This document shows positions 4,492-30,653 of a stretch of 32,000 bases of DNA, piece after piece. The stretch's first letter is position 1. Each line of letters starts with the position of its first letter. The notes beneath the pieces were generated by a model. That model worked only from the letters and a program-made list of their open reading frames with translations, was not told the DNA's origin and made no database searches. Origin of the DNA: Candidatus Scalindua sp. Its GTDB lineage: Bacteria > Planctomycetota > Brocadiia > Brocadiales > Scalinduaceae. A program made the position numbers and the translations under genes. Location: assembly GCA_031316235.1 (NCBI GenBank), contig JALDRA010000001.1:210001-242000 (forward strand). The letters run 5' to 3'.

Positions 4492-5233
4492 TCAATGAGT
4501 AATACACCAATAGTAGGTGTTTTGAGCCCCTATATTGTCGTTTTTGCCACCAGAAAGCGCGTTATAGGCCACACTCTCTTCTCGAAGCCGAAATTCTGTA
4601 TCTGTTTCAATAATTTCACGCCCTTTTGCCAATATGTCCAATTTATCCTTTATTGCATTGGTAAATCGTTCACTGCCAACTGCTATACTTTCGGTCCATT
4701 GTGGCTGTCTGCAATTATCTCCATTCGCCAGAGAGTCATTTATCAAATCGTAAGTTCAAACTGTTTTCAGAAAAATGTCATTCCCGCATGCTTTAAGCGG
4801 GAATCCAGCGGTGACGACAATTCTGGATGCCCGATAAAGTCATTCGGGCATGACAAAAGAGGGTATATAACCTAAAAAGTTTGATCACTGAAAACAGTTT
4901 GAACTTACCTTTGTGAGTTTTTCGGAATAGCTCGTAAGATTTAAAACCTGCTAACCGAGCGAGTTTTTCATACGCGATAAGGACACATTTTTTACGTGGG
5001 TTCTGAATCTCAATGTAGCCGCCATATTGCCATTGAGACGGGTGGGTTACTACACCATTACGGACCATATTCAAATCAATGTAGCTGAGACATCTGACGT
5101 CCTCGATTGCTGTCGCATGATAACGGTCTTCCCAGAAGGCACCTTTTCTCTTTTTTCTCAGGTTGTACTCCTGACCAGTTCGACCAGCAACTAAACGAAT
5201 TTTATTGTTCATCATGCCCTTTATGCTCTTCAA
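4492..5233 (-). pseudogene. RAYT-like / IS200-superfamily Y1 transposase, N-terminally truncated and split by a 160-bp insertion
   Basis: The upper ORF carries VAGRTGQEYNLRKKRKGAFWEDRYHATAIE...YIDLNMVRNGVVTHPSQWQYGGYIEIQNP. The lower ORF carries QWTESIAVGSERFTNAIKDKL...GREI. Both are conserved blocks of one protein family. The HUH-containing N-terminal ~100 aa are absent. The two ORFs become one frame if 4750-4909 is removed (verified codon by codon). Confidence 0.6.
4750..4908. mobile_element. 159-bp MITE-like insertion with 21-bp perfect terminal inverted repeats and a GTCATTCCCGC-type core
   Basis: GTAAGTTCAAACTGTTTTCAG (4750-4770) is the exact reverse complement of CTGAAAACAGTTTGAACTTAC (4888-4908). 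Inner inverted pair TGTCATTCCCG (4776-4786) / CGGGCATGACA (4845-4855). A C flanks both ends (4749 and 4909). Confidence 0.8.
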
Positions 5234-6218: not shown

Positions 6219-7262
6219 ATGCTACCATTATCACAAATTGAAAGCAACCAAAAACCACTTCTCATTCACACCGTTCACGAAGACGACAAGGTACTGCTTA
6301 ATACGCCAGATGCAGAGTGGTTTAGAGTCTTATATTATTTTCCCTGTAAAATAGAGAAAGAAGTAGTCGGAGATACAACCCACTATTATGCGTATTCAGG
6401 GTTTGAGACAGTAAAGTATAAAGACAAAGACGGCAAGGAGCAGAGGAAGTCGCAATCAAAGTTAACCAAGAAGTGTCGCTGTCAAGACAGAGACAAGTGT
6501 GAACATGACTGGGTACTGGCAGATGAAGGAGCGGGAACAATCGTGAAATCCATAACAAAGATGTATTGGGGCCACAAAGCAAGCATTGTCGGTTTTCCCC
6601 GTCAAGGGGTGCCTTTGGATGCAAGGGCGGTGTTGGATGGACCGACCCATGATGTAGAGACATTTCTTCCGCATATAGAAGAAGTATTTGATACCTATCC
6701 GGTAATTAAAGAATCGGTTAAAAGAGCATTGTATGATAGTGCGTGTGATAGCAAAGATTTGAAAGATAAGTTTATGGATAAACTTGGGATGGAATTAAAG
6801 GCATCTTTAACTCCAAGGCGTCAGAGGGAAGTAACAGTTGGGTTGCCGCGTGGTATGGAAAAGATAACGCCGTATGGTGCCGTTATTTGCAATGGGGGCC
6901 ATGAGATGGATTACAAAGGAATGCGTTATGAACGAGAGAAATTCATTTATCATGCCCCAACGGATACAGATGGTGGATCGGTGTGTTCAACATGCCGGCA
7001 TCAGGTAGAGTGTTGCCCCAATTCGCTAACCGGCAGGATGATTAATATATCATTTGGATTGTTACCCCACATAGACACAGAAGACCCTTCGATGGCAAAG
7101 AGATTTAAGGCGATAATGACACGTCGCCCTTCAGTTGAGCGGATGATAAAGCGGCTGAAGTGTGATATTGGTGATGATCGTTTAAGCAAGAGAGGGAATC
7201 TCTCATTTCAGGCATACCTGGATAAGACGATGATTGCTTTTCACCTCTTGTTACAGAATTAA
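6219..7262 (+). CDS. DDE transposase, IS4/IS5 superfamily (IS1182-like features)
   Basis: YWGHKASIVGF...GVPLDARAVLDGPTHDVETF, then ALYDSACDS, then RRPSVERMIKRLKCDIGDDRLSKRG follow the DDE_Tnp_1 order. There is a Cys-rich CSTCRHQVECCP block. The N-terminal region is atypical and short. No convincing terminal inverted repeats were found. Confidence 0.6.
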   Translation: MLPLSQIESNQKPLLIHTVHEDDKVLLNTPDAEWFRVLYYFPCKIEKEVVGDTTHYYAYSGFETVKYKDKDGKEQRKSQSKLTKKCRCQDRDKCEHDWVLADEGAGTIVKSITKMYWGHKASIVGFPRQGVPLDARAVLDGPTHDVETFLPHIEEVFDTYPVIKESVKRALYDSACDSKDLKDKFMDKLGMELKASLTPRRQREVTVGLPRGMEKITPYGAVICNGGHEMDYKGMRYEREKFIYHAPTDTDGGSVCSTCRHQVECCPNSLTGRMINISFGLLPHIDTEDPSMAKRFKAIMTRRPSVERMIKRLKCDIGDDRLSKRGNLSFQAYLDKTMIAFHLLLQN

Positions 7263-7657: not shown

Positions 7658-8326
7658 CTAAAATTCTCTTGTCGGTAAATCTTTGAGCACTTTGTTTGGC
7701 AAGTTACTGTCAGGAAATAAGATGACCCAAAAAGTGAGAAACACAATTTTCAAGTCAATGGTGAATGACATATTATTTTGATACCATATCTCTAATGCTC
7801 CTTTATATGGCATTACCAGCCTTTCATAACATTCAAGGGGCGGTAAATGAGAGTCTGTCACTAATTTCTCTTCGTCCCTAAACATGATCGATCCAATACC
7901 AGTTAATCCAGGTTTTATATTGTAAACAGATTCTTTAAGTATCCTGTTATATCTATTAAATCCTGCTTCCATTAGTGGTCTGGGACCAATTAGTGTCATA
8001 TCACCTTTTAAAACATTTATGATTTGTGGTAATTCGTTAATTTTTGTCTTTCTGAGATAACTCCCTACAAATGTTACCCTTGAATCATTTCGCAAGGTCA
8101 CATCACCAGTTCCCATATTGGGACTATCTTTCAGCATGGTGGCAAATTTCCAGATTTTGAAAATTTGATTATTGTAACCTACGCGTGGTTGTTTATAAAA
8201 CACATACCCTTCACCTGTTACTCGAAGTAAAAGGAAAATTGGGGCAAATAAAGGTAAGAATATTATTAATGCTAATAATGAAACTACTACATCAATAACT
8301 CTTCTTGATAAGAGATACATTTTCAT
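7658..8326 (-). CDS. Small monotopic phosphoglycosyl transferase (bacterial sugar transferase, PglC/WbaP C-terminal type)
   Basis: RVIDVVVSLLALIIFLPLFAPIFLLLRV...YKQPRVGYNNQIFKIWKFATM...DSRVTFVGSYLRKTKINELPQIINVLKGDMTLIGPRP is the PF02397 pattern. The start is moved to ATG 8326 (or 8320) because track residues 1-49 are translated from an intergenic repeat. Confidence 0.85.
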   Translation of the reverse strand: MKMYLLSRRVIDVVVSLLALIIFLPLFAPIFLLLRVTGEGYVFYKQPRVGYNNQIFKIWKFATMLKDSPNMGTGDVTLRNDSRVTFVGSYLRKTKINELPQIINVLKGDMTLIGPRPLMEAGFNRYNRILKESVYNIKPGLTGIGSIMFRDEEKLVTDSHLPPLECYERLVMPYKGALEIWYQNNMSFTIDLKIVFLTFWVILFPDSNLPNKVLKDLPTREF

Positions 8327-8328
8327 TT

Positions 8329-8519
8329 TATACTCATCTCGTAATGGTTTTCGGATAAAATCCGAGATAAAACGGAGCGAGTATACCTTCACCAAGATTT
8401 GGTTTTCAGCCCGCCCGGCCTGTAAGCCATTATCCAGCCCCCGTCCGTACCGGCACGGGCGGGCGATACTCATTCTGGCGGGGACGGGTAAATCCGAAAA
8501 CCAAAACGGTTTTAGTATA
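8329..8519 (+). repeat. Modular spacer element, copy I
   Basis: Shares left end TATACTCATCTCGTAATGG, block AAAATCCGAGATAAAA, block TACCTTCACCAAGATTTGGTTTTCAGCCCGCCCGGCCTGTAAGCC and right end AAAACCAAAACGGTTTTAGTAT with the copies at 17.0 and 18.0 kb. It has an extra GC-rich hairpin block (8409-8417 pairs with 8456-8464). Confidence 0.9.
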
Positions 8520-9663
8520 AGGCATTCTTAATTTCCACTACCACTCTTTCTAATTCATCATCCGTAATGCTCGTGGAACATGGAATTGCCAGACAGGTTT
8601 TAAGGAGTTCTTCGCAAGCATCAGAATCAGTGACAACATACAGACAATCATGATACATTGGTAATTTATTCATTGGCATCCAGAAAGGACGAGAAATGAT
8701 TTTATTATCATTTAAATGTTTTAATAATTTGGTTTGATGGTTGGTCTTTATTGTAAAAAGCCAATTATTGTGATCAACATCATCTAATACCGTTTGAAAT
8801 CCAATGTCTCCGACTCCACTGAGATGCTCTTTATAGAAAGCGCCAATTTCTTTTTTCCGTCTGACAAAAGAGTCTAAGACTTCCATTTGAGCCACTCCTA
8901 TTGCAGCAAGAACGTTAACCATCCGGTAATTATATCCAATTTCATCATGATAATAACTCATTGGATTAACCTTGGCCGTTGTCGTAATATGCTTTGCCTT
9001 TTTTGCCAACAACTCATCATCCGACACGATAACACCCCCACCACCGGTGGAGATTATTTTATTTCCATTAAAGCTGAAACAACCCATTAGACCAAATGTC
9101 CCGGAATGTTTACTTTTATACGTAGTGCCAAGAGCCTCAGCAGCATCTTCGATTATTAATAAATTATGTTGATCAGCAATTCTTATCAACCTATCCATGT
9201 CAGTCATGTTACCTTGTACATGCACCGGCATTATGACTCTTATGCACCTGCCATCATCCTTAAGAATACAATCTCCTTTTAGATTCCCATACGTTTCCTT
9301 CGTCAGAAACTCTTCTAACAGATCCAAATTCATTTGCCAGTTATTCAAATCAACATCGATCAAAATAGGGTCTGCGCCGGTATATTTAACAGAATTCGCC
9401 GTAGCAACAAAGGTGATATTTGGAATAATTACATAATCATTCCGTTTTACTCCTGACAGTTGTAAGGAAATATGAAGCGCACAAGTTCCATTAACCGTTG
9501 CAACACCAAATTTTGCGCCAACATAATCAGCTACCATTTCTTCAAATTTGCCGACAAAGCCTCCGGCCGATGATATCCATCCAGTATCAAGGCAATCTTT
9601 CACATATTCCCATTCATTTCCCGAAATATTAGGGACTGACAGCGGAATTAACTTATTATTCAT
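8512..9663 (-). CDS. DegT/DnrJ/EryC1/StrS-family PLP sugar aminotransferase (PglE/LegC-like)
   Basis: IPLSVPNISGNEWEYVKDCLDTGWISSAGGFVGKFEE at the N-terminus. The Lys-containing block is CFSFNGNKIISTGGGGVI. Length is 383 aa. Confidence 0.85.
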   Translation of the reverse strand: MNNKLIPLSVPNISGNEWEYVKDCLDTGWISSAGGFVGKFEEMVADYVGAKFGVATVNGTCALHISLQLSGVKRNDYVIIPNITFVATANSVKYTGADPILIDVDLNNWQMNLDLLEEFLTKETYGNLKGDCILKDDGRCIRVIMPVHVQGNMTDMDRLIRIADQHNLLIIEDAAEALGTTYKSKHSGTFGLMGCFSFNGNKIISTGGGGVIVSDDELLAKKAKHITTTAKVNPMSYYHDEIGYNYRMVNVLAAIGVAQMEVLDSFVRRKKEIGAFYKEHLSGVGDIGFQTVLDDVDHNNWLFTIKTNHQTKLLKHLNDNKIISRPFWMPMNKLPMYHDCLYVVTDSDACEELLKTCLAIPCSTSITDDELERVVVEIKNALY

Positions 9664-9750
9664 GCTTTCCTGTCAAAAAATGATTCTTCGTGTTGAAGTC
9701 CTGACTGAACAAACTTTATACAATTCAAGTATATTAAATATCAGCGTTTT

Positions 9751-9923
9751 CCAGTTAGGTTTTTGCGTGTTTTATTTATTGTCCCAAAGTTGTCATTCCC
9801 GCATGTTTTAAGCGGGAATCTAGGATGAACAATCCTCTGGATACCCGATAAGCTTGTCATCGAGTGATTATATCGAGGAAGCGTTCGGGTATGACAAAAA
9901 CGTATACGCAAAAACCTAACCGG
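9751..9923. mobile_element. Second GTCATTCCCGC-core element, with different outer inverted repeats
   Basis: The core at 9791-9899 shares three blocks with 4776-4858: a 30-mer with 1 mismatch, a 16-mer with 2, a 17-mer with 1. Outer IR is CCAGTTAGGTTTTTGCGT (9751-9768) vs ACGCAAAAACCTAACCGG (9906-9923), 17/18 complementary. Confidence 0.75.
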
Positions 9924-9985
9924 ACACTAATTATTAAATATGAGAAAAGTATTGATTTTACTAATTTCATAAGGCATTGTTGCAG

Positions 9986-10209
9986 TTAATCAATTACCCT
10001 CCCCGGATTACCGACTACTGTTTTACAATCCAGTATTCGTGTTCAACAATAACTCCTGAGTTTATAATTGCACAGCGTTGGATTGTAGCCAACGAGTTGA
10101 CTATAGCATTGGCACCTAGCATAACTCCACCATGTAGAATTTACTTCTCAGATATTGAACAAGCCACCGGTGGTAATAGAGCGTAGCAGAATATTCGTTC
10201 GGTGTAGCA
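9986..10209 (-). pseudogene. C-terminal left-handed-beta-helix (hexapeptide) remnant of a NeuD/PglD-type sugar N-acetyltransferase
   Basis: Hand translation gives FCYALLPPVACSISEK*ILHGGVMLGANAIVNSLATIQRCAIINSGVIVEHEYWIVKQ*, then after a 1-nt shift VVGNPGRVID*. It shows hexad periodicity, the CIINTGAIVEHD-like block and the terminal VVGNPARVI-like motif. There is an internal TAA at 10141-10143, and about 55-60 aa between the two blocks are missing. Confidence 0.6.
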
Positions 10210-10214
10210 TCATA

Positions 10215-10895
10215 CTAGACGATACTTTCGGTTTTCAGCTCAAACACATGGCCGCCAATCTTAATAGTTGGCTGGAAAACATCATAGCTAGTTGCTCTCA
10301 CACGCCTTTCTATTTCTTCTGAGGTCATAGTTGGTTTGATCTCACACAATTCGTGGAACTCTTTTCTAGAAAATGGCTTTCGAGTCCATTTTTCTTTCGA
10401 CGATGGTAAGGGTTCGTTTCTCAGTATGTGTCCTACGATTTCATAGAAAAGGACTAATTGATAGTCATAGGTTCGGATAAGAAGTGAGTTGACATCATCA
10501 TTTGGAAAAACCGAGAATCGTTTAACAGCAACAATGGTGCCCGTATCAACCTTGGTAGCAATATGATGACATGTAACCCCATATTCCTCTGAACACTCGT
10601 ACAAAGCAAAATTATTGCAACCGATACCTGGATACTCTGGTGAAGCAGGGTGAATATTTATTGCCGCAACTTTGGCTCTTTTAATTAGGTACTCCGGGAC
10701 GATCCACCTTGAGAGATACGAAATTATATAATCACCGTCCCAACATCCTATGTCTTTGGGTAACGGATCACCCCACACACCAAGATACGCTGAAACATCA
10801 GAAAAATTATTCTTAATGAATTTAAGGGCTTTTGAGCAATGTTCGTCCTTTTTCTTACCGAGAAACAAAATTGAGCAGTTCATTTTGTTTGTCAT
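10215..10895 (-). CDS. Formyltransferase-family protein, probable sugar N-formyltransferase
   Basis: Formyl_trans_N-like core: AAINIHPASPEYPGIG supplies the Asn/His and KVDTGTIVAVKRF supplies the Asp. At ~226 aa it is similar in size to stand-alone sugar N-formyltransferases. It sits between a dehydratase and an aminotransferase. Confidence 0.65.
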   Translation of the reverse strand: MTNKMNCSILFLGKKKDEHCSKALKFIKNNFSDVSAYLGVWGDPLPKDIGCWDGDYIISYLSRWIVPEYLIKRAKVAAINIHPASPEYPGIGCNNFALYECSEEYGVTCHHIATKVDTGTIVAVKRFSVFPNDDVNSLLIRTYDYQLVLFYEIVGHILRNEPLPSSKEKWTRKPFSRKEFHELCEIKPTMTSEEIERRVRATSYDVFQPTIKIGGHVFELKTESIV

Positions 10896-11324
10896 GAGTT
10901 ATCCTTTTTATAAGAGTTAGCCAGGCACTGGAGTGACAGGAATTTAACATATTTACAACATTATTATTCTTTAAAAAATTATATACATCCTCTCTTATAA
11001 GCCTGTTGCACAAACCCAAAACCAGCCGTTTTTCATGCTTCATATAGCAGGGAGTGCCAGTAGCACACACATCATATTGATCACATTTTGGTTTGTGCAA
11101 CAGGCTATTATATGATAATTTCCAATGTCGATAAAGTAATCACTGGTCTGTAAAATTTGATTTGATAATCCGTCTCTTTCTGATCCCAGGTATTTTAAAT
11201 TATACGGGTTTTCTTGTTTTTCCGTTTTATCAAAATATCCTGTTACCTTTAAACCCATTGATTTAAAAATATCGCATACTACATACGCATGACCTGAGTA
11301 ACCGATGAGAAAAATGTCTTTCAT
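10855..11324 (-). pseudogene. N-terminal domain of a NeuD/PglD-type acetyltransferase, interrupted by a MITE and lacking its hexapeptide domain
   Basis: MKDIFLIGYSGHAYVVCDIFKSMGLKVTGYFDK...YFIDIGNYH matches the NeuD-family N-domain (IIGAGGHAKVV.D......G...VGF.DD...IGNN.IR). The frame breaks at the 108-bp insert. After removing it the reading is IGNYHIREDVYNFLKNNN. The ORF then runs into the formyltransferase start. Confidence 0.6.
11000..11107. mobile_element. 108-bp MITE with 17-bp perfect TIRs and a 5-bp TTATA target-site duplication
   Basis: AGCCTGTTGCACAAACC (11000-11016) is the exact reverse complement of GGTTTGTGCAACAGGCT (11090-11106). TTATA lies at 10995-10999 and 11108-11112. Deleting 107 or 113 bp restores the acetyltransferase frame. 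Confidence 0.8.
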
Positions 11325-11511
11325 TTAAGTGGATCGAATTAGTGTTTTCTGGCGTGGACGGGTGCAACGTTGCATAAGAACTACTTTTTTTCCTCTCGCC
11401 AAGACGCCAGGAACGCAAAGAGTAATGACTTCTCTCTTTTAATTTACTTTTATGTTTTTCTTCGCGCTCTTAGCGGCTCTGCGTGAGACTATTCTTTTTC
11501 ACTGAATCGAA

Positions 11512-12714
11512 TCACATTTTCTGATCTAAATTCTTTCCTGTTTCAATGTGCTGTAAAGACAGCACGACCTTACAGAACTCATCAACAATATGATCTTTAT
11601 TTATATTCTTTTTGGTTTTTAAGCTTTTTGCAAATGAGATAAAGTTTAATAGGCAATCTTTATCCATTTCTGCTTGTAATGACTTAATTATCCCCACATT
11701 TTGAAAACGATCAAAATTAATTATGTCACTTGTAGTATAGAATTCTTCAAAATCCTTTTCACCCGAGGTATCTGTTTTAAAGAAATAACAAGGCCACTGT
11801 TTATTCTTAATAAGCTCAGGTGCTTTCCTTTTTGCTTCCCCTTCTGATTCACACTCAAAGGGATCGAAACCATTTTGTTTTAAAAAATTTCTCGCAATAT
11901 CTGCAAAAGTTTCTTCATTTAAGCCCTGCTCTAACTTTGGAAAAAAGATATCACCATTATCGCCTAATATACAGGACAAAAGACATAATTGAGATGCTTC
12001 CTTGTGGGAAATAAAATATCTTTTTACATCATAAGGGGCAGATATTGCCTGTTGTTTTTTTAAACGATTAATAAAGCCAAATGGAAGGCTTCCATCTGAA
12101 AATGCAACATTTGCGAATCTGGCAGTTGAATAACGGTGCAGTGTCGAATGATATCGCAACACCTCTTCCATAACCATTTTACTTGCTCCCATTAAATTTG
12201 CAGGATTAGCGGCTTTATCAGAGGAGACGGAAAAGAAATTTCTGATTTTATACGGTAGATTTTCTAAAAAATCGTGCAGGAATAAAACATTAGTATCGAG
12301 CATCCGAATCAGACAATAAATATCTTTCTCCGAGCGAACATGTTTAATGGCACAAAAGTTAAGAACATAATCAAAGGAGAGAGACTCTTCGAAGTATCTC
12401 ATAAATTCCTGACTTCCAAATCCAATAGGGAGCGTTGAAAAATCCTCCGGAACACGTAAACCAGCACATGAACGAATGTCTCTAACAACCTCAACCAGGT
12501 TATTCTCGCTTAGATCGATCAGGGCCAATCCTTTTGGATTGAACTCAAGTATCGTCTTCACAACAGCTGAGCCAATTGAACCCGCAGCGCCAATAATTGC
12601 AACTCTGGCGTTCTTCAGGTTATCATTAATTGCCTTGTAATTGTTGGCGATATCTTCTTCAAATAAAGAAGCGGCTCTGCCAGTCACCATTTCTTCGTAA
12701 TCAAATAAATTCAT
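11512..12714 (-). CDS. CapD/PglF-like polysaccharide biosynthesis protein (NDP-sugar 4,6-dehydratase family)
   Basis: Rossmann motif VAIIGAAGSIGSAVV. The SSDKAANPANLMGASKMVMEE block corresponds to the STDKAV.P.N.MGA.K..AE signature of Polysacc_synt_2. Confidence 0.75.
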   Translation of the reverse strand: MNLFDYEEMVTGRAASLFEEDIANNYKAINDNLKNARVAIIGAAGSIGSAVVKTILEFNPKGLALIDLSENNLVEVVRDIRSCAGLRVPEDFSTLPIGFGSQEFMRYFEESLSFDYVLNFCAIKHVRSEKDIYCLIRMLDTNVLFLHDFLENLPYKIRNFFSVSSDKAANPANLMGASKMVMEEVLRYHSTLHRYSTARFANVAFSDGSLPFGFINRLKKQQAISAPYDVKRYFISHKEASQLCLLSCILGDNGDIFFPKLEQGLNEETFADIARNFLKQNGFDPFECESEGEAKRKAPELIKNKQWPCYFFKTDTSGEKDFEEFYTTSDIINFDRFQNVGIIKSLQAEMDKDCLLNFISFAKSLKTKKNINKDHIVDEFCKVVLSLQHIETGKNLDQKM

Positions 12715-12920
12715 GCATCTAACTTTTTAAGGTTGCCACAGTGCACAGGGACGAAACAGGAAAAATAATATAGAAACAGATACTTAGCCACAGAGGATAG
12801 TAGAGTAGAGAACAGGCGTAGTAGCTACAGGCTGTAGTTTGTGTTCACTGTTTCTCACCCTTTCGTCTGTGAGTGCCACAATATTACAACCATACCATAT
12901 TACCAACTCCCCCTCGTCAA

Positions 12921-12952
12921 ACCGTGCATGCGGTTTTCCCGCACACGGCTTT
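12921..12952 (-). ncRNA. Group II intron domain V
   Basis: The minus strand reads AAGCCGTGTGCGGGAAAACCGCATGCACGGTTT. It has the AGC triad, a GAAA tetraloop and a 2-nt bulge in the 3' strand, which is the canonical catalytic hairpin. Confidence 0.85.
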
Positions 12953-12985
12953 CCGACAGTCTTCATCTCAAGTATTCACAGGTAG

Positions 12986-14317
12986 TCAAATAAGCGCGTA
13001 TTTTGAGGGGTCGATTAGTCCGTATCTACTTACTAAGACCTTACATGCTCCTTGATTATAGAGCTTGCACTTGCGTTGACTTTTCCTCTTATAATATCTC
13101 GCCAATTTCTCTCTGAGATAATACCGGAGGTTTCTCTTCGCCTTGCCTGGATACGTTACTCCTTTTATTGAGAAATAATTAATCCAGCCTCTTATTATTG
13201 TATTCAAATCATTAGCTACATCTTGCGGAGGTTTATGCCCATTGTGCCACAGATACTCTCTTATCTTTTCCCTAACTTTCTTTTGAGATTTACAGCTTGG
13301 CTCAACGTTCCAATACTTCCTAAGCTTTCTACCAAGCACATCATCGTCAAACCTGAAAGTATGGCCAAGAAAGTCAAAGCTCTCATCAAAGGCATTTACT
13401 ATATTACTCTTATCCTCGTTAAGCTTTAGCTTCATCCTCTTTAGCAGTTTATTAAGGTCGTCAAGTGCTCTCTGCGGAATTCGTTTTGCCATCAATACCC
13501 AATCATCGCAATAACGAATGATCTTGATTCCACTTTGATAGAATGCACCACCCTCTCTGTTCACTGCTTTATCGAGCAAATGAAGATAAATGTTTGCTAA
13601 TAATGGTGAAATTACTCCCCCCTGCGGTGTTCCGAGCTTGTTTTTCTTCCCACCTGTAAGTCTGCCGTTCTCCATCACTGGCGCTTTTAACCACATTTTT
13701 ATAAGGTGCAGTACATTTTTGTCGCTTATCCTCTTGCCTACCAGCGTTAACAGTTCCTTATGTGGAATCGTGTCGAAGTAGGCGCTCAGGTCAGCATCAA
13801 AAATATCACACTTTCCTAGCCTCAGATTCTTCTTGATTTCCGTTACAGCACCTTTGGCTGAACGTTTCGGTCGAAAACCATAAGAGCTGTCTTCAAAATC
13901 CGCCTCAAAGATCGGTTCTATTACAAGCTTTACCGCCATCTGTAGTATCCTGTCTTTTATCACAGGAATTCCCAATGGACGAGTTTTGCTGTTGGCTTTA
14001 GCTATATACACTCTTAGTACCGGCTGTGGTTTATAGGTTCTGTTTTCAAGTTCCTCTACTATTTCAGCAAGGAACTTGTCTACTCCATATATTTCCACAT
14101 CCTCAAATGTCTTCCCATCTACTCCGGCGCTTCCTCTATTGGCTTTACAGCGCTTGTAGGATTCTCTTAGAAAATGAGGCAGTCTCACCTTGTCATACAA
14201 TACATAAAAACGAAATGTTTCCTCCTGTTTGGCTTTTTGATATAGTTTACGCTGAAAATCTCGGACTTTTTCCTTATCGCTCATTTGCGATTTAGGTCTT
14301 GTTTGTAGGTCGCCCAA
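12986..14317 (-). CDS. Group II intron reverse transcriptase/maturase
   Basis: RGSAGVDGKTFEDV, RPLGIPVIKDRILQMAVKLVIEPIFEADF, SYGFRPKRSAKGAV, DADLSAYFDTIPH, GTPQGGVISPLLANIYL, and IIRYCDDWVLMA (a YCDD variant of YADD). Maturase X block RGWINYFS. No HNH/En domain after it. Confidence 0.9.
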   Translation of the reverse strand: MGDLQTRPKSQMSDKEKVRDFQRKLYQKAKQEETFRFYVLYDKVRLPHFLRESYKRCKANRGSAGVDGKTFEDVEIYGVDKFLAEIVEELENRTYKPQPVLRVYIAKANSKTRPLGIPVIKDRILQMAVKLVIEPIFEADFEDSSYGFRPKRSAKGAVTEIKKNLRLGKCDIFDADLSAYFDTIPHKELLTLVGKRISDKNVLHLIKMWLKAPVMENGRLTGGKKNKLGTPQGGVISPLLANIYLHLLDKAVNREGGAFYQSGIKIIRYCDDWVLMAKRIPQRALDDLNKLLKRMKLKLNEDKSNIVNAFDESFDFLGHTFRFDDDVLGRKLRKYWNVEPSCKSQKKVREKIREYLWHNGHKPPQDVANDLNTIIRGWINYFSIKGVTYPGKAKRNLRYYLREKLARYYKRKSQRKCKLYNQGACKVLVSRYGLIDPSKYALI

Positions 14318-14882
14318 TACAATATCCTCTTTTCTTTGTAAACACTAACTGAAGTAATGCCCCTTCGCTCCTGTGAAGTTATAGTGTCTTCACTATCATC
14401 ACTACTATGAGCATCTCCGACTTCTCATTATCCCACAATACTTTTCGGCTAGCCTTATAGTATTCCGTTACGGTCATCAGCCTGAATAATGAGACCTCCC
14501 ATGTTCATACATATACCGTTTACAAGCATACCATCACTCATAACTCCGACGATCCCACATACCTTTGTACCGTTTTATTTCGTATGCAGTTACAGGTTTC
14601 GCCATCTCCGGGAGGCTCACCAATCGCATTGGTGTAACGAAGCCAGCGTGTTCGCTTTCGCTACGGTCTGCCTGTTTGCTTACAGGGAACTTGGATGCAC
14701 TCATCGCTGATTACACCCTCCCACGAAACTTACCGTTTCTTTGGCTACCGTCCGAACGGTCAATTGACGGGTTGGAATTTCACCAACTGACATATGTACG
14801 CCTCATGGCGTACCAGAGAGCACAGAGAAATAAAACATAGTAACAAAAACTTAGCCACCGATTACAATAAACCAACCATGTG

Positions 14883-14996
14883 TTACGTCTTACGCCCTAT
14901 GGCTTACGTCTTACGTCTTACGTCTTAAGACATACAACTTACCACTTACCACTTAGGACCTACCACTTATAACTTATATGACTTACGGCCTACGGC
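14883..14996. repeat. Heptanucleotide tandem array, consensus TTAC(G/C)(T/A)C
   Basis: 14 units in unbroken phase at 14883-14980: TTACGTC TTACGCC CTATGGC TTACGTC TTACGTC TTACGTC TTAAGAC ATACAAC TTACCAC TTACCAC TTAGGAC CTACCAC TTATAAC TTATATG. After a 2-nt slip come TTACGGC CTACGGC. Confidence 0.95.
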
Positions 14997-15010
14997 TTAT
15001 AAAAGCAATT

Positions 15011-15051
15011 CTCTGTGTACTTTGTGGCAACGAAATAGTCCGCCGAAGGCG
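15011..15051 (+). repeat. 41-bp post-stop-codon repeat, copy A
   Basis: CTCTGTGTACTTTGTGGCAACGAAATAGTCCGCCGAAGGCG matches 15702-15742 at about 35/41 positions. It lies 6 nt 3' (in the minus-strand sense) of the stop at 15057. Confidence 0.85.
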
Positions 15052-15056
15052 CTACT

Positions 15057-15401
15057 TTAAAGCATTTCTTCAGTATTAATGGACGTTACAAACCTGCCTC
15101 CATGGATAGTTACTTCTATTGGAACATCAAGAATCAGATAGATCTCCGGAAAGTTCTTTTTTATGCCCGTCCACTGACCGAAAGATAAGTAAGTGGGCAT
15201 ATCCGGTGAGAGATAAGCCACATGATCATAATGGTCCGTATAGAGAAAAAAGAAATCTCCCTCTTCAACCTTTGGGTTTTCATAGGGGCATGCTTTCATA
15301 TATCGAACAGGACCGTTAGCGTGACAGAGCCCAATTACAATCAGTAATGCTAAACAGAAGACAACAAGAGCAATCTTTACATCATTAACAAAATGAGACA
15401 T
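15057..15401 (-). CDS. Hypothetical small membrane-anchored or secreted protein
   Basis: Start moved to ATG 15401 (MSHFVNDVKIALVVFCLALLIVIGLCHANG, a signal/anchor-like segment). No recognisable family. The gene is bracketed by the 41-bp repeats. Confidence 0.45.
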   Translation of the reverse strand: MSHFVNDVKIALVVFCLALLIVIGLCHANGPVRYMKACPYENPKVEEGDFFFLYTDHYDHVAYLSPDMPTYLSFGQWTGIKKNFPEIYLILDVPIEVTIHGGRFVTSINTEEML

Positions 15402-15701
15402 TTTAAAGAAGTTTATAAAATTTGATTTAACCAAATATGCTATGTACCAAAAAGACTTCATTAAATTTATTGTATAGGTAATTTCCATTCTAATCCGTGA
15501 CAACACATAGGTTATGCAAAAATAGTTTCTTTTTTTGCCACAGAGGATACAGAGATCTCAGAGAATTGCTTTTATATTGAAGTTTTCAGGCTTTGAAAAG
15601 GTCTTCAAATTATAACCATTTTTGGAATTTCTGAGACGTAAGTGTTCAGGATAAAATAACAAGTTGTTTCTTCCCGAAGCCTAACTCTTTTTCTCTGTGC
15701 T

Positions 15702-15742
15702 CTCTGTGTACTCTGTGGCTAAGAAATAGTCCGCTGAACGGG
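15702..15742 (+). repeat. 41-bp post-stop-codon repeat, copy B
   Basis: CTCTGTGTACTCTGTGGCTAAGAAATAGTCCGCTGAACGGG lies 12 nt 3' (in the minus-strand sense) of the glycosyltransferase stop at 15754. Confidence 0.85.
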
Positions 15743-15753
15743 AAGGCGGTAAT

Positions 15754-16980
15754 TTATTGACCAACTAAATCTGTAAGAAACTCCTCAAGTTTCAAATATT
15801 CTTTGTTTCTATCAAATCTTTCTTCTACTAACTTTCTGGCATTTTTCCCCATCTGTTTGCTTCTTTCCTTATCATTGATAATTATTCTAATTGCATTGAC
15901 TAAGCTATGGACATCTCCTGCCTTATACTGAAGCCCCGCCTGTTTTTCATCCAACAACCCTTGAAGTTCTCCCGGGATTGAGTTGATTACAGGGAGTGAA
16001 GCAGCAAAATAGTCAAAGACCTTATTAGGAAATGTTTGAGGTGCATCGGGCGCATAAGCATTGAGGCCAACTGTACTGAGACCAAGCACATGTACCATGT
16101 CTGAATAACCGAGCATTCCCGTAAATGCTATGTTGTGTATGCCTTCCTCTACAGCTTTCTTTTTAAGCCGAGGATATTCAGGGCCATCTCCAGCTATGAT
16201 GAACTTCACATTAGAGTTCTTCATAAAACAAACGGCGGCATCTAAAATCGTATCTAAATCATAAGTTCTACCGAAAGTCCCGATATACGTAATCCAAACA
16301 TCTTCTATCTCTTTTTTATGAAGAAAATTGTTAGGTGTTATTTTCTGGCTATCAAAAAAACATAAATCTATACCGAGATGCAAGACCTTACCTGGCTTTG
16401 AATTCCTGGAAGCGCTGAGACCTCTCTCAAAATAGTCTTTAGATACGGCCATCAGCGCATCTGCATTTCTATAAATAGAATCTACCTTTTGAAAAAGTCG
16501 CCATAAAACAATCTTGCCTATAGGTTTCAAATACCCTGGCAAAATAAAGAGGTATAAATCGGGCCATAAATCCTGAATGTCTATTACGATCTTTGAGTTA
16601 AACTTTTCTCCAACCCTTAATGCTGCATCAGCAGATTCCAATGGCGGAATACTGGCAAGGATAATATCTGGTCTTTCCTTTGCTTTCAGAGCCTCAGCTT
16701 CAAATCGTCTACCATAGAGGTAATGATTATACAATCTGGCAAAGCCTATATTCTTTTTATAAGCTGGTGTTGGTATCTGTTTTATCGTTAAATTTGCATT
16801 AATTTTCTCTGTCTTGGCTTTGGAAGATCTGTATTGTTTACTCATATGAAAGAAATTGGATGTCCACCAGGTAACCTTGTGTCCTTTTTCAGACAACATG
16901 TTGGCTATAAATGCGTATCGCCCGGGGCGAAAGGATTCACCTGGCAAAGGATCAAAAGGGTTAACAATCCAGATGCGCAT
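15754..16980 (-). CDS. GT4-family glycosyltransferase (WbuB-like)
   Basis: MRIWIVNPFDPLPGESFRPGRYAFIANMLSEKGHKVTWWTSNF is a WbuB-type N-terminus, and a C-terminal GT1/GT4 fold block is present. The start is set at ATG 16980 because the 25 upstream track residues are translated from spacer element copy II. Confidence 0.85.
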   Translation of the reverse strand: MRIWIVNPFDPLPGESFRPGRYAFIANMLSEKGHKVTWWTSNFFHMSKQYRSSKAKTEKINANLTIKQIPTPAYKKNIGFARLYNHYLYGRRFEAEALKAKERPDIILASIPPLESADAALRVGEKFNSKIVIDIQDLWPDLYLFILPGYLKPIGKIVLWRLFQKVDSIYRNADALMAVSKDYFERGLSASRNSKPGKVLHLGIDLCFFDSQKITPNNFLHKKEIEDVWITYIGTFGRTYDLDTILDAAVCFMKNSNVKFIIAGDGPEYPRLKKKAVEEGIHNIAFTGMLGYSDMVHVLGLSTVGLNAYAPDAPQTFPNKVFDYFAASLPVINSIPGELQGLLDEKQAGLQYKAGDVHSLVNAIRIIINDKERSKQMGKNARKLVEERFDRNKEYLKLEEFLTDLVGQ

Positions 16981-17004
16981 AAAAAAGGCTCCGATTAAAT
17001 GTGC

Positions 17005-17175
17005 TATACTAAAACCGATTTGGTTTTCTGGCCTGCCTGTGCGTAAGGAACGCACGTAGACAGGTAAAATCCGAGATAAAATTGAGCGAATAAAGTCCTC
17101 GGCGTTTTTTGTCCGGGGATAACTGCAACCAGGCTTCAGTTTTTGAAAAAACTAAAACCAAATCGGTTTTAGTAT
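17005..17175 (+). repeat. Modular spacer element, copy II (MITE-like, perfect 22-bp TIRs)
   Basis: ATACTAAAACCGATTTGGTTTT (17006-17027) is the exact reverse complement of AAAACCAAATCGGTTTTAGTAT (17154-17175). The internal block 17059-17115 is 54/57 identical to 18107-18163. Confidence 0.9.
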
Positions 17176-17252
17176 GCCATAAGCCCGTATTGTGTTATTA
17201 CAATAAGGCGATAGACTTCAAGATGGCATTTCCACCATTTTTTCAAATTCTT

Positions 17253-17987
17253 TTAAACTCGAACTGCTTGAAAAATGATATGACCACTAAATAAAAGCTT
17301 TATACATTCAAGAGTTTTTGGATCAATATTTTTAATTCTTCCCAATAACTTAATTATACGATTCAAAGGAGAACCTCGAGATGACCATATTATTTTATTC
17401 AATATGTTCGACAAACATTCTGGCAATAAATATGGAAACATACGAGAGCAGATAAGAGAAAAGCAATCAATTCCTGAGCAAATCCTTTCCAATCTAAAAC
17501 CTGCCTCTTCCATCATTCTTTCAAGACCATACGGCGTTATACTTCGGAGCGAATTACTATGGTAAGGTTCTAAGTGTGATGTACTGCCAATAAACTTTCC
17601 GCCGATTTTACAGACTCTTGCTAATTCCTCAAAAACAGTTTGCAAATTTTGAACATGTTCTAAAACCTGGCAACTGAATAGCACATCAAAACTTTGATTA
17701 TTGAAAGGCAGTCTATCACCATCATATACTACTCTATTGCCATAAGCTTGTTTGGTTCTATTAACTTCGGGAGAATGTAGTAAATCAACACCAAACCATT
17801 TGTGATTGCATTTATTTATGGTTTTTAAATATCGGCCGTCGCCGCAGCCAAAATCAAGAACTTTTTGAGCTTCTTGTTTTTTCAATTCTTCAAATGTCCA
17901 ATTTAGTGCACTAGTTTGAATATTGTCTTTACCAACATACACTAAATGATAATACTTTTTTACTATGTCGACATCACTAATACGCAT
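17253..17987 (-). CDS. Class I SAM-dependent methyltransferase
   Basis: Motif I VLDFGCGDGRYL. Post-I/II blocks FDVLFSCQVLEHV and ARVCKIGGKFIGST. Confidence 0.8.
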   Translation of the reverse strand: MRISDVDIVKKYYHLVYVGKDNIQTSALNWTFEELKKQEAQKVLDFGCGDGRYLKTINKCNHKWFGVDLLHSPEVNRTKQAYGNRVVYDGDRLPFNNQSFDVLFSCQVLEHVQNLQTVFEELARVCKIGGKFIGSTSHLEPYHSNSLRSITPYGLERMMEEAGFRLERICSGIDCFSLICSRMFPYLLPECLSNILNKIIWSSRGSPLNRIIKLLGRIKNIDPKTLECIKLLFSGHIIFQAVRV

Positions 17988-18031
17988 ATTGTCAATACTC
18001 CCAATCTACTTTTCTCACTCTTCACTGCTGC

Positions 18032-18282
18032 TATACTCATCTCATAATGGTATACTGGCCTGCCTGTGCGTCGCACCTGTCTGCGTGCATCGCACAGACA
18101 GGCATAGACAGGTAAAATCCGAGATAAAATTGAGCGAGTAAGGTCCTCGGCGATTTTTGTCCGTGGAAAGTCCTCGGCAAGCTTTTGTCCAGGGATACCT
18201 TCACCAGGATTTAGTTTTCAGCCCGCCCAGCCTGTCAGCCGTTCGGACGGGTAAAACCGAAAACCAAATCGGTTTTAGTATA
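18032..18282 (+). repeat. Modular spacer element, copy III (longest)
   Basis: Contains every module seen in copies I and II except the left TIR. It also has an internal tandem duplication (GTCCTCGGCGATTTTTGTCCGTGGA / GTCCTCGGCAAGCTTTTGTCCAGGGA) and a duplicated CTGTGCG...CAGACAGG block. Confidence 0.9.
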
Positions 18283-18294
18283 CTTTATATCATT

Positions 18295-20535
18295 TCACTC
18301 TGGAATCGGTTTAGTAAGATTTGAAATTTTTTCCAGGTGATGCATGATTGTGCTTCTGAATTGGTAAAAATCTTTACTCTCTCTAACAAAGGAATGTGCA
18401 TTGTCTACAACACCTGCGATTTTTAAGAGGCTCATGGCCTCATTAATGGCAATTTCCAGATCTATGGTATCATTACTTTTTTCCGTCCTTTCATTAAGCG
18501 CCTTTATCTTTTCATTCAGCATATAGAGATACTCATAGTCTTCAATCCCATCTCGCAAACATTCCAGCCTTACAGAGCTTAATGGCATACCATCAGGCCC
18601 TGGATAAATAAGCAAGCCTCCGCCTGCGTGCCTCCCAGATGAATAAACTGACCATAACTCAACGGGCCACCTGGTCTTTTTGTAAACGTTATTCAATCCC
18701 TTCTTTTTGAATTGTTCGCTTCTTATTATATGCCACCATGCATTGGCAGACCAATACATAAAACCACTTGCTCCATATTTCCAACCAACCCATGGAATGA
18801 TACGCTGAGATAGACAGGGATAATCAAGGTACATCTGAGGATAAGGAGAGAATGGATTCGCTCCTGCATACATCCAGATGATATCACCGTCTTTTTCGCG
18901 TTTAAGCCAATCATTGTAGTTTATCTCCAGAAACTGAATCTGTGGAATCCAGATGTCGACAAGCCCTGCCAGTTCTGGATGCACTTCTTTTATATCTGTT
19001 GCTAATTTGAGTTCTGGAAATTCCTTTTTAAAGAATCTGTGAGCATCTACCATATTTGTCAATATTTCTTTATACTTTTGCGGTTCATTCCAATGCAACT
19101 CATCAAATCCAAATAAAAAAGCTTTGTCCATTACTCCTTTCTTTTTTATTTTCTTGATGATAGGCTTCAACTCCGCAAGGGACAACTTCTTGTCTTTCTC
19201 TTTAAAATCTTTATCGTTGCCCCAACGCTCTTTATACCCTGCTAAATGGAAAAAGTTGAATTTCTTGTCCCATAGAGGAATAAGTTCCTTAATTTCCTCA
19301 AAATTTCTAATACCCCATATGGATAACGTATTGGCCCTCTTATCTGCCATAAATACCCGAAACTCTTTTACATAATCTGGTGACTTCCTGCCGTATATCT
19401 CATGGGTGGCATCTGGTTGAAGCGGTACAGTAAACTCAAAGTGACTCTTTTCTGGAAGCGCGAAATCAAACACCTTTACTATTAATCTCACAGGGTAATC
19501 GTGGGAATTTGAAGTGCTAATTATAATATCACCTTCATATATACCGGCTCTGACATCCTCAGGTATATATACATCCACCCAGATGGGTTGGAGTTGCCCC
19601 TTCTCTACACTGAAAGAGTTTAGTTTTAAGAGTATATCAGGAATCCACCCCTTGTACAAACTGGGGTGCAGCGAACCATCGCAATATACATAACCCAGTG
19701 GATATGCTTTAACATTATGTCTACTTAACTTGAAATCCTCACCTCTAAGCTTCAGATTCTTTATGTGAACTTTAACCTTTTTAAGGTCTTTCTTAATAGG
19801 AATCAGGACTATCTGGATAGCTTCATGTTCGTTTTTTCCTAACTCTAATTGAGCGATATTAGTAACATTTCCTTCAAGCGGCCTATCCAGCATGACCTTT
19901 TCCAGAGAGCTCACCACGCCTATCCCGTATTCCGGATCATCGATATAGAGTTTCTCTCGAGCAAACTTAAGGCTCTCTTCTTGAAATTGTTCCCAGGACT
20001 TATGGTACTCCACTTCCTTTAGACACACACTATCAATCCATGCCCTCATTCCTTTACGATTGATCAAGGTTATTTTAATATTGGTAGTACTCAGATCACC
20101 TGAATTATAGACCTCCTTTACTTCATGCCAGAAAGGATACGTTATATCGTAACTTACTTTGTCGAATACCGTATGTTTCAAATCCTGCATACTATTGGCT
20201 TTTGCCACAAAACTAAAAATATAATCTGTATGGGGTTTAACGGAAACTGATTGTATTATGTTAACTTCGTCACCCAGATTAAAATTCTCCATCATTAAAC
20301 TCTGTTTACCCTCATAGCCATCCTCTGTATTAGTATACTTGCCATTTTTTCCCACGCTGAAGCGCCATACAGTTGGATTTCCATTACGATCACACTGTTC
20401 AAAACCGGAGTTCTGTAAAAGGTTATCGCTGTAAGCCGCTTTGCTTGAGCAATCAAACAAAATTAAAAAAAACATACTGATCACTACTATTAAACTACTA
20501 TTACCATTCATAATGTACTCTTTTCTAGATTCCAT
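18295..20535 (-). CDS. Secreted DUF4091 / GH123-like protein with an N-terminal carbohydrate-binding-like domain
   Basis: N-terminal hydrophobic signal (IVVISMFFLILFDCSSKAAYS). CBM4/9-like opening NLLQNSGFE...PTVWRF. C-terminal GGGLLIYPGPDGMPLSSVRLECLRDGIEDYEYLYML matches the DUF4091 signature (G.G.L.YPG..GP..SIRLE..RDGIEDYEYL). Confidence 0.7.
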   Translation of the reverse strand: MESRKEYIMNGNSSLIVVISMFFLILFDCSSKAAYSDNLLQNSGFEQCDRNGNPTVWRFSVGKNGKYTNTEDGYEGKQSLMMENFNLGDEVNIIQSVSVKPHTDYIFSFVAKANSMQDLKHTVFDKVSYDITYPFWHEVKEVYNSGDLSTTNIKITLINRKGMRAWIDSVCLKEVEYHKSWEQFQEESLKFAREKLYIDDPEYGIGVVSSLEKVMLDRPLEGNVTNIAQLELGKNEHEAIQIVLIPIKKDLKKVKVHIKNLKLRGEDFKLSRHNVKAYPLGYVYCDGSLHPSLYKGWIPDILLKLNSFSVEKGQLQPIWVDVYIPEDVRAGIYEGDIIISTSNSHDYPVRLIVKVFDFALPEKSHFEFTVPLQPDATHEIYGRKSPDYVKEFRVFMADKRANTLSIWGIRNFEEIKELIPLWDKKFNFFHLAGYKERWGNDKDFKEKDKKLSLAELKPIIKKIKKKGVMDKAFLFGFDELHWNEPQKYKEILTNMVDAHRFFKKEFPELKLATDIKEVHPELAGLVDIWIPQIQFLEINYNDWLKREKDGDIIWMYAGANPFSPYPQMYLDYPCLSQRIIPWVGWKYGASGFMYWSANAWWHIIRSEQFKKKGLNNVYKKTRWPVELWSVYSSGRHAGGGLLIYPGPDGMPLSSVRLECLRDGIEDYEYLYMLNEKIKALNERTEKSNDTIDLEIAINEAMSLLKIAGVVDNAHSFVRESKDFYQFRSTIMHHLEKISNLTKPIPE

Positions 20536-30374: not shown

Positions 30375-30653
30375 GAATGACTGTCCCTGATAAAGTGTAA
30401 TGGGGTCAAACCTTCATTATTCAATTATTATTCCCTTCACTTTCTGACTATTTGTTTTTGCCACGAAGATGCTAAGACACAAAAGTTTCCTTACCACAGA
30501 GACAGACAAAAAACAAATTCCAAATGACAATATTACAGTGACTAAAGTTTTAAGTGAACTAAAGTAACTAAAGTTAATGGTCTACTTTGCTCCAATAGTT
30601 ACAACCTCTAGGGTCAACCTCTAGGGTCAGACCTTGAAAGCAGAATAAGGTAT

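Follow-up and report, generated by a model that had tools for sequence, protein, structure and literature searches.

Three related repeats stand in the same orientation in gene-gene spacers of one surface-polysaccharide cluster of Candidatus Scalindua, and the locus raises the question of whether they are RNA elements kept for the sake of the operon or mobile DNA that has come to rest between genes. An earlier note on the window (the whole 32 kb stretch of DNA analysed) described them as modular and MITE/BIME-like, and a motif scan, an alignment and an nhmmer search of the window bear out the presence of three related modular repeats in these spacers. They are very probably non-coding, non-autonomous cut-and-paste DNA transposons (MITEs) specific to Candidatus Scalindua. 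Because of their 26-nt terminal inverted repeats (TIRs) and TA target-site duplication they belong with the MITEs of the Correia/RUP type and not with BIME/REP elements, so that only the first half of the earlier label stands. The family appears to be new, but its kind is already known.

A family nhmmer profile run against the window returns copies I, II and III only (Table 1). The end motif AAAACCAAAWCGGTTTTAGTAT has four matches in the window, which are the three right ends and the inverted left end of copy II, where none are expected by chance (100 shuffles). Copies II and III are 94% identical over 63 nt (17057-17119 vs 18105-18167) and copies I and III 90% identical over 49 nt (8383-8431 vs 18195-18243), in agreement with the block identities noted earlier, and the perfect 22-nt inverted repeat of copy II was also recovered. 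The coordinates first given for copies I and III hold, but copy II ends at 17176 and not at 17175, its right TA being degenerate. The alignment of the three copies, from which presence and absence of modules were read, reproduces the described pattern of differing module sets with one correction: the 27-nt unit had been assigned to copy III alone, but copy II has one as well, and what sets copy III apart in this respect is only the duplication. Each copy had been said to fill its spacer; copy I does so, overlapping the stop codon of the DegT/DnrJ-type gene and ending 2 nt short of the following ATG, but unique spacer is left on both sides of copy II (24+77 nt) and copy III (44+12 nt).

Table 1. 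Coordinates of the three MITE copies, their parts and the flanking genes in the window
Feature	Position	Strand	Remarks
Bacterial sugar transferase gene	7658-8326	-	PF02397, 1.7e-51; true start ATG 8324-8326
MITE copy I	8329-8519	+	191 bp including TA duplications 8329-8330 and 8518-8519
Copy I, left TIR	8329-8354		
Copy I, hairpin block H1	8356-8383		
Copy I, block M	8384-8409		
Copy I, slot Y	8410-8488		Long GC-rich hairpin module
Copy I, right end	8489-8519		
DegT/DnrJ-type aminotransferase gene	8512-9663	-	PF01041, 1.3e-97
GT4-family glycosyltransferase gene	15754-16980	-	True start ATG 16978-16980; GGAG 10 nt upstream
MITE copy II	17005-17176	+	172 bp; right-end type at both ends
Copy II, TAs	17005-17006; 17175-17176		Right one degenerate (TG)
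Copy II, perfect 22-nt inverted repeat	17006-17027; 17154-17175		
Copy II, slot Z	17028-17064		GC hairpin
Copy II, H1	17065-17092		
Copy II, 27-nt unit	17093-17119		Single
Copy II, M	17120-17145		
SAM-dependent methyltransferase gene	17253-17987	-	Between copies II and III
MITE copy III	18032-18282	+	251 bp including TA 18032-18033 and 18281-18282
Copy III, left TIR	18032-18057		
Copy III, slot Z	18055-18112		Enlarged hairpin
Copy III, H1	18113-18140		
Copy III, tandem 27/28-nt units	18141-18167; 18168-18195		
Copy III, M	18196-18221		
Copy III, slot Y	18222-18251		Short GC hairpin
Copy III, right end	18252-18282		
GH123-like glycoside hydrolase gene	18295-20535	-	Stop codon 12 nt from copy III right end

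An exact scan of 185,579 species genomes for the end motif returned more than 119 stretches of 8 kb; among the matches listed nearly all are from Scalindua or Scalinduaceae MAGs, the exceptions being two short contigs binned outside the Scalindua lineage, and two assemblies hold at least 43-47 such stretches each. The copy census, taken on a sample of genomic loci (953 kb, at least ten assemblies) with simple ORF calls as genes, comprises 156 copies. Their TIRs are 26 nt long and imperfect, follow the pattern TATACT-N10-TGGTTTTCGG and lie at the exact tips of both ends. Copies fall into discrete size classes of 57, about 113, 140, 166-172, 194 and 220-251 nt, in which the minimal unit is that of 57 nt and the basic, commonest unit that of 113 nt. 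Larger forms, about 140 to 251 nt long, have hairpin modules at three internal slots of fixed position, namely the tandem 27-nt unit and two GC-rich hairpins. Modules are nearly always found within elements, in constant orientation relative to the ends and in most combinations, and may have been gained and lost by slippage, deletion or recombination between copies. At 57-251 bp the copies are too short for a transposase gene, and the ORFs that touch the window copies are false 5' extensions only. No Rfam family matches the elements at gathering or permissive thresholds, a group II intron being the sole match, and a literature search gave no report tying Scalindua or anammox to MITEs. The repeats, which the earlier note did not recognise as a described family either, appear to form an undescribed modular MITE family.

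Evidence of mobility comes from related sites with and without the element. The paralogous site ccttg-TA-cctggg is empty in loci L002, L043, L026, L033, L066 and L070 and filled in L010 and L016, locus L031 is filled where the paralogous sites of L055 and L033 are empty, and in L099 a family copy has been entered, with TA duplication, by a sister MITE whose TIR is nearly identical. The flanks show no duplication beyond the terminal TAs, and their base preference is symmetric. Judged from these comparisons the element inserts at TA and duplicates it, a behaviour formally indistinguishable from that of an element which bears a terminal TA and lands beside a TA. The family has what defines a MITE, namely small size (far below about 600 bp) without a transposase gene, TIRs at the tips, TA duplication and high copy number. 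Some features would also suit a REP/BIME or IS200/IS605-type palindromic element (REPIN/PATE) moved in single-stranded form by a Y1 (RAYT/TnpA) transposase: the architecture is a mosaic, each element end has a small hairpin of its own (AAAACC..GGTTTT), the 57-nt forms resemble two inverted hairpins, the long GC-rich module consists of a pair of inverted GC-rich palindromes, and strand-specific insertion could account for the common orientation in the window. However, the TIRs start exactly at the element tips, TA is duplicated on insertion with a symmetric target preference, orientation bias is absent across the family, and no Y1 transposase gene was seen adjoining any copy in the sampled loci, all of which makes such an origin highly improbable. 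Strand-specific insertion of the IS200/IS605 type was also considered as the cause of the common orientation and is ruled out by the TIRs and the TA duplication.

Several known systems invite comparison with these MITEs. Correia/NEMIS elements of Neisseria measure about 107 or 155 bp, have TIRs of about 24-26 bp, TA termini and a TA duplication, and occur in hundreds of intergenic copies whose size classes differ by an internal block; they are often co-transcribed and strongly folded, and their partner transposase is not known (PMC2229807). The Scalindua family is like them in small size, TIR length, TA termini and TA duplication, abundant intergenic copies, size classes, probable co-transcription and strong folding, and in that no partner transposase was found. 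The likeness is one of mechanism only, as the sequence is unrelated, the host phylum is Planctomycetota and there are three variable slots compared with one in Correia; an IHF site, a promoter and RNase III cleavage are not among the features shown for the Scalindua family. RUP of Streptococcus pneumoniae is about 107 bp long and intergenic, is present in about 100 copies, inserts at TA and often does so in other repeats or IS elements, and its mobilisation by IS630-Spn1 has been proposed (PMC2229807). Scalindua copies too occur inside other Scalindua repeats, but the TIRs of RUP are short and its sizes form no modular series, and RUP has a candidate partner with matching ends, of which none was found for the Scalindua family. 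The enterobacterial ERIC/IRU is an imperfect palindrome of about 127 bp with TA termini that is co-transcribed with its neighbours (PMC2229807). Its TIRs are far shorter (7 bp), its sequence is unrelated and its host range is another. Larger ERIC variants arise via insertions at fixed internal sites. The BIME/REP elements of E. coli and the REPINs resemble the Scalindua family as extragenic mosaics of hairpin motifs with GC-rich palindromic sub-modules. REP/BIME elements are tied to RAYT Y1 transposases and are not known to have TIRs bounding their mosaic or a target duplication, whereas the Scalindua unit moves whole as a TIR element with TA duplication.

The genes that flank the three copies are all on the minus strand, and the elements are therefore antisense to the mRNA. 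To the earlier note the fixed orientation and position had suggested an RNA-level role. In such an explanation, modelled on Correia elements, exapted copies would be kept in the operon for hairpins that would serve in RNase III processing, mRNA stabilisation, attenuation or internal promotion of transcription and so balance the expression of the polysaccharide genes against one another. All three copies do occupy gene-gene spacers within one co-directional cluster, where they would be part of the transcript, and they fold far better than shuffles: copy I on the mRNA-sense strand at -72.2 kcal/mol (z = -3.5), copy II at -60.3 kcal/mol (z = -6.9) and copy III at -94.4 kcal/mol (z = -5.0). Copy II could form a perfect duplex of 22-28 bp, and its mRNA strand contains a hairpin with UUUUUU behind it (minus strand, 17173-17151 plus T-run) which gives a terminator-like score, although this hairpin is weak and found in copy II only. 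Transcripts of Correia/NEMIS have been proposed as RNase III targets (PMC2229807).

The family as a whole argues against this role. Relative to co-directional flanking genes, sense and antisense copies number 13:11, 23:15 and 36:24 at three distance cut-offs (119 Scalindua loci), a mild sense excess of about 60% that is non-significant at every cut-off, and the antisense orientation of the window copies is the minority orientation family-wide. A 2:1 sense bias (38:19) had come from a crude gene call and gave way to the non-significant 23:15 with better handling of start codons. Neighbouring copies share their orientation in a non-significant ratio of 21:11 (p = 0.11), and the other loci with at least three copies have mixed orientations in all five cases. 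With a chance probability of about 0.25-0.3, the common orientation in the window looks like a coincidence without functional meaning. A search for conserved structure was no more favourable to the suggested role, as the consensus structure is weak (-12.8 kcal/mol) with a covariation term of -0.28 kcal/mol, so that covariation is essentially absent, and the two strands fold equally well (mean -45.5 kcal/mol sense vs -46.7 kcal/mol antisense). Promoter-like and terminator-like matches in the region show no excess over shuffles (43 vs 38.8 and 13 vs 9.6, respectively), the three copies carry different module sets, and copy I destroyed an overlapping stop/start junction. Location gives a divided answer, in that insertion sites are not conserved, which speaks against a role, but only 2 of the 156 copies are inside genes. 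Near-absence from genes is the usual pattern of bacterial MITEs and by itself indicates no function. On balance an exapted RNA element is quite unlikely. A GC-rich cassette, GCCCGCCCGGCCTnnCnGCCrTTCGGACnGG, is common to the MITE family and at least two Scalindua repeat families unrelated to it; it might be exchanged as a unit in its own right, either a REP-like mobile hairpin or a site that a host protein binds or cleaves, in which case the hairpin modules would not be mere passive cargo, or the operon MITEs might uncouple the expression of neighbouring polysaccharide genes as points of partial termination or of RNase III-type processing, and these two ideas are unlikely even when taken jointly.

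Most syntenic or orthologous sites of other Scalindua species lack the element, and the GT4-GH123-methyltransferase block of Ca. Brocadia pituitae has spacers of 65 and 59 nt without any element at 74-76% amino-acid identity (74% for the GH123-like protein); the window spacers minus their MITEs measure 58 and 102 nt. By this comparison the insertions in the cluster are evidently secondary. The same block bears on the proposal that copies II and III and the methyltransferase gene that they enclose (17005-18282) arrived as one composite transposon by means of the outer MITE ends. These outer ends do constitute an inverted repeat, perfect over 24 nt and at 80% over 44 nt, and copy II has an imperfect inner right TA (TG), but the gene order is kept in the MITE-free Brocadia block and therefore the methyltransferase is native and the MITEs inserted around it, which renders a composite origin very unlikely. 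The window methyltransferase is identical to a Ca. Scalindua sp. protein, and a search through identical proteins for empty alleles of the window's own sites met nothing but short contigs from the same strain, which break off at repeats. The elements are where the Logan contigs of this strain end. As to why three MITEs are clustered here, a surface-polysaccharide locus that is AT-rich and tolerates insertions would offer good targets at its intergenic TA sites.

The insertion of copy I can be reconstructed at the nucleotide level. The last codon and stop of the DegT/DnrJ gene (TAC TAA) now come from the end of the element, while the reconstructed pre-insertion end reads AAT GCC TTA AAA TGA, with the TGA overlapping the ATG of the following sugar transferase gene, which now starts, read along the transcript, 2 nt after copy I. 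Copy I thereby split an overlapping ATGA junction, and translational coupling at this junction would have been lost. Further side effects would be long structured inserts in the operon mRNA and, through copy II, the duplex and weak hairpin-plus-U-run described above. As had been suspected from the sequence, ORFs 7658-8473 and 15754-17055 are listed with false N-terminal extensions into copies I and II, respectively; the Pfam domains and sensible ATG starts (8326 and 16980) fall outside the elements.

A trans-acting transposase would move the MITEs. Neither the 953 kb of loci nor the window, a targeted metagenome scan or viral contigs yielded an autonomous element with matching ends, so the transposase family is deduced from the TA duplication alone, by which an IS630/Tc1-mariner-type DDE enzyme would be the likeliest mobiliser. 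TIR pairs spaced 0.6-4 kb apart in the 953 kb enclose only the sister MITE of L099, which carries a group II intron, and ordinary genes between separate copies; multi-copy ORF clusters at the loci, screened for transposases, proved to be housekeeping orthologues, and a generic screen for ORFs with inverted repeats gave one unrelated IS. The metagenome scan, with the TIR plus a base excluding the known subfamilies, uncovered no transposase but another MITE subfamily, and the viral contig scan for family ends was empty. No IS630-like gene was seen in the sampled loci, and an IS630 seed sequence sought on a Shigella plasmid gave no result. The transposase genes of the window are of the DDE_Tnp_1 and DDE_Tnp_1_6 types, without the ends of the MITE family.

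The main value of the family lies in annotation and assembly and it reveals no new regulatory mechanism: together with at least three accompanying repeat families it creates false N-terminal ORF extensions, and it breaks short-read contigs. It also marks recent genome plasticity in an uncultured and environmentally important anammox genus, where the presence or absence of copies supplies markers for typing Scalindua strains, and the TA duplication and defined TIRs provide a handle for finding the active transposase. Besides the three copies, the same surface-polysaccharide locus has further MITE-like repeats, a group II intron and a pair of transposase genes.

The three related elements of the earlier note (copies I, II and III) are confirmed by sequence reading and by alignment of the three stretches, and are the only matches in the window to a family profile of 43 members. 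They share the right end AAAACCAAA(A/T)CGGTTTTAGTAT, a motif with four matches in the window, one of which is inverted and forms the left end of copy II, and with none in any of 100 dinucleotide-preserving shuffles of the window. The repeat blocks noticed earlier were reproduced by a repeat finder. As the note said, the stretches by which two ORFs run into copies I and II are artefacts. Every neighbouring gene, in what is a surface-polysaccharide cluster, lies on the minus strand and the copies are therefore antisense to the mRNA.

Features of the window and repeats recovered by the repeat finder
Feature	Position	Strand	Remark
Copy I	8329-8519		
Copy II	17005-17176		
Copy III	18032-18282		
Repeat D2			63 nt at 94%
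Repeat D4			28-nt block in copies I, II and III
Repeat D6			49 nt at 90%
Repeat I6			perfect 22-nt inverted repeat within copy II
Sugar transferase	7658-8326	minus	
DegT aminotransferase	8512-9663	minus	
Formyltransferase	10215-10895	minus	
Polysacc_synt_2	11512-12714	minus	
GT4	15754-16980	minus	
Methyltransferase	17253-17987	minus	
GH123-like	18295-20535	minus	
GT4 (second)	20550-21761	minus	
Group II intron	12786-14860	minus	within polysaccharide cluster, between Polysacc_synt_2 gene and genes upstream
Intron domain V/VI	12800-12953		Rfam
Intron D1-D4	14656-14789		Rfam
Intron RT ORF	12986-14317		
Direct repeats flanking intron	12760-12794, 14827-14861		35 nt at 80%
Heptamer tandem array	14880-14942		CGTCTTA-like; just past 5' side of intron
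Two other MITE-like elements	4750-4908, 9750-9924		both with GTCATTCCCGCATGYTTTAAGCGGGAATC; inverted repeats 21-nt perfect and 19-nt (95%); one just upstream of DegT gene
Transposase-like ORF	57-1667	plus	DDE_Tnp_1, 536 aa; adjoins cluster; no MITE terminal repeats around it
Transposase-like ORF	6219-7262	plus	weak DDE_Tnp_1_6 match, 347 aa; adjoins cluster; no MITE terminal repeats around it
~580 bp unit	14998-15576		between 28-nt inverted repeats (86%)
ORF inside ~580 bp unit	15057-15506		149 aa; no Pfam match
Direct repeat of end of ~580 bp unit	15701-15738		38 nt
GC-rich island	29700-30300		56-64% G+C vs background ~40%
Direct repeats near window end	30525-30719, 31640-31811		~1.1 kb apart; 54 nt at 78%, 30 nt at 97%, 28 nt at 93%

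When one genome for each bacterial and archaeal species was scanned for exact matches, the end motif turned up in more than 119 8-kb stretches. Among the matches listed, Ca. Scalindua sp. SCAELEC01 accounts for 43 stretches, Scalindua RBC_AMX3 for 47 and one Scalinduaceae MAG for 17, the remainder belonging to Ca. S. arabica, Scalindua SI037 and unnamed Planctomycetota or uncultured MAGs, along with two short contigs from bins of other phyla. The window methyltransferase is identical to a protein from a 4.15-Mb Ca. Scalindua sp. contig. The collected loci (953 kb) contain 156 family copies, which fall into discrete length classes of 57, ~113, ~140, 166-172, ~194 and 220-251 nt. The commonest form, of 113 nt, is TATACTCATCTCATAATGGTTTTCGGATAAAATCCGAGATAAAATTGAGCGAGTATAACTGCAACCAAGATTTGGTTTCCAGTAAAACCGAAAACCAAATCGGTTTTAGTATA. 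Imperfect inverted repeats of 26 nt, TATACT-N10-TGGTTTTCGG, form the two ends, and a minority of copies, copy II included, carry the right-end version at both tips. In longer forms inserts occupy three fixed slots. One takes the 27-nt unit AAGTCCTCGGCGCCTTTTGTCCGGGGA, in 0-2 (rarely more) tandem copies; another takes a GC-rich hairpin that precedes the right end and comes in a short, a middle or a long version; and the third takes a second GC-rich hairpin directly inside the left terminal inverted repeat (TIR). These modules, seen in most combinations, are invariant in orientation relative to the element ends and almost never occur outside elements in the loci searched. Logan short-read contigs (L001, L121-L125; SRR28338161/62/69) that encode proteins identical to those of the window end inside or beside MITE copies, so assemblies of this strain are broken up by the family.

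Some copies are inserted in members of other repeat families, and the members without such an insertion provide the empty sites for comparison. The site ccttg-TA-cctggg is empty in six loci and filled in L010 and L016, with the sequence ccttg-TA[TACT...GAGTG]TA-cctggg. A different site is occupied in L031 but empty in both L055 and L033, and two more filled/empty comparisons are listed without a base-by-base reading. A sister MITE of ~190 nt, whose TIR, TATACCCATCACAAATTGGTTTTCGG, is nearly that of the family, lies within a family member at CCGGTA-TA-AAATTG, and here too the TA is duplicated. No duplication was found outside the terminal TAs in the flanks of family copies, where base preference is symmetric, C being nearly absent at -3/-2 and G at +2/+3. 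TA duplication is the hallmark of IS630/Tc1-mariner enzymes. Together with the TIRs it is the signature of cut-and-paste transposition, in which a DDE transposase supplied in trans would act on the TIRs and move the MITE; we infer this step, since the partner transposase was not found in several searches (loci, metagenome scan, viral contigs and window). A comparable pair is RUP and IS630-Spn1, the element proposed to mobilise it (PMC2229807).

The family is like Correia/NEMIS and RUP in mechanism and anatomy, combining TIRs and TA duplication with a length of ~100-250 bp, hundreds of intergenic copies and size variants. It lacks the features that define REP/BIME, so that of the "MITE/BIME-like" label only the first half stands. 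Family sequence and host are new, and the literature searched contained no paper on MITEs in Scalindua or anammox bacteria. The only mildly unusual feature is that hairpin modules assort freely and, linked to this, that a GC-rich cassette is shared across families.

The fixed orientation of the copies had been read as a sign of function. Among family loci outside the window with co-directional flanking genes, sense and antisense copies number 13:11 where both neighbours lie within 150 nt, 23:15 at a 300 nt cut-off and 36:24 at 600 nt, all non-significant, and the antisense orientation seen in the window is the minority. Orientations are mixed in all five other loci with at least three copies, neighbouring copies have the same or opposite orientation in 21:11 cases (p = 0.11), and three copies would share one orientation by chance with a probability of ~0.25-0.3. 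The copies avoid genes, as bacterial MITEs usually do: only 2/156 interrupt an open frame that continues for 40 or more codons to each side.

The window copies fold well (z = -3.5 to -6.9), which must be expected of any element built from TIRs and hairpins. The consensus of 43 copies retains only three small hairpins (-12.8 kcal/mol, with a covariation term of -0.28), and no Rfam family matches the elements. The sense and antisense strands are equally good at folding (-45.5 vs -46.7 kcal/mol), which fits DNA palindromes rather than strand-specific RNA. Position is not conserved: four or five unique syntenic comparisons between Scalindua species show a clearly empty site in the other species, and one has different element subfamilies within the same spacer. 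The interpretation of the earlier note is partly supported, as a MITE and not a BIME, and no evidence points to a selected RNA-level role.

On either side of the methyltransferase gene lie MITE ends, the left one of copy II and the right one of copy III, that together make a 24-nt perfect inverted repeat (44 nt at 80%). In principle this 1.28-kb unit (17005-18282) could move as one composite transposon. However, synteny with Ca. Brocadia pituitae indicates that the methyltransferase belongs to the block natively. The GT4-GH123-methyltransferase block recurs there at 74-76% amino-acid identity, and its spacers, 65 and 59 nt long, contain no element. In-silico removal of the MITEs leaves window spacers of 58 and 102 nt. 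The target of copy I was the TA of TTA/AAA in the reconstructed sequence ...AAT GCC TTA AAA TGA AAATG, where the TGA that ended DegT overlapped the sugar transferase ATG. Insertion altered the last DegT residue from K to Y, supplied a new stop codon and moved the two coupled genes 189 nt apart, which looks like tolerated damage rather than design.

When transcribed, the elements would add long structured inserts to the operon mRNA. Predicted folding of copy II allows a duplex of 22-28 bp, and on its mRNA strand UUUUUU comes after an AU-rich hairpin of 9-10 bp. Judging from Correia elements (PMC2229807), the inserts may be cut incidentally by RNase III or cause partial termination.

The GC-rich hairpin cassette GCCCGCCCGGCCTnnCnGCCrTTCGGACnGG is common to the family and two other, unrelated Scalindua repeat families (L020 ~1565, L096 ~2461, L039 ~3556, L047 ~4034, L048 ~970, L093 ~7546). 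One of these two is MITE-like and ~220 nt long; its ends are GGGTCCAGGAAAAAATAACTTGT, and it has 12 long matches in the loci. The sister MITE (L012 ~4155-4337, L013, L033, L047, L099; 14 long matches) has terminal repeats nearly those of the main family and an unrelated interior, its left end is joined to the body of the main family in L114 (3817-3929), and both families probably use the same transposase. A further short repeat of Scalindua genomes, ggttacgtaattatttcgcgccttgTAcctgggcagttttggttcaaacact, present at L002 ~338-389 and at 26 more positions across the loci, is host to several MITE insertions. In other Scalindua genomes group II introns lie within MITEs, at L099 428-2506 in the sister MITE and at L054 ~76-805 inside the 27-nt unit of a family member, which suggests that MITE repeats are frequent landing sites for these introns.
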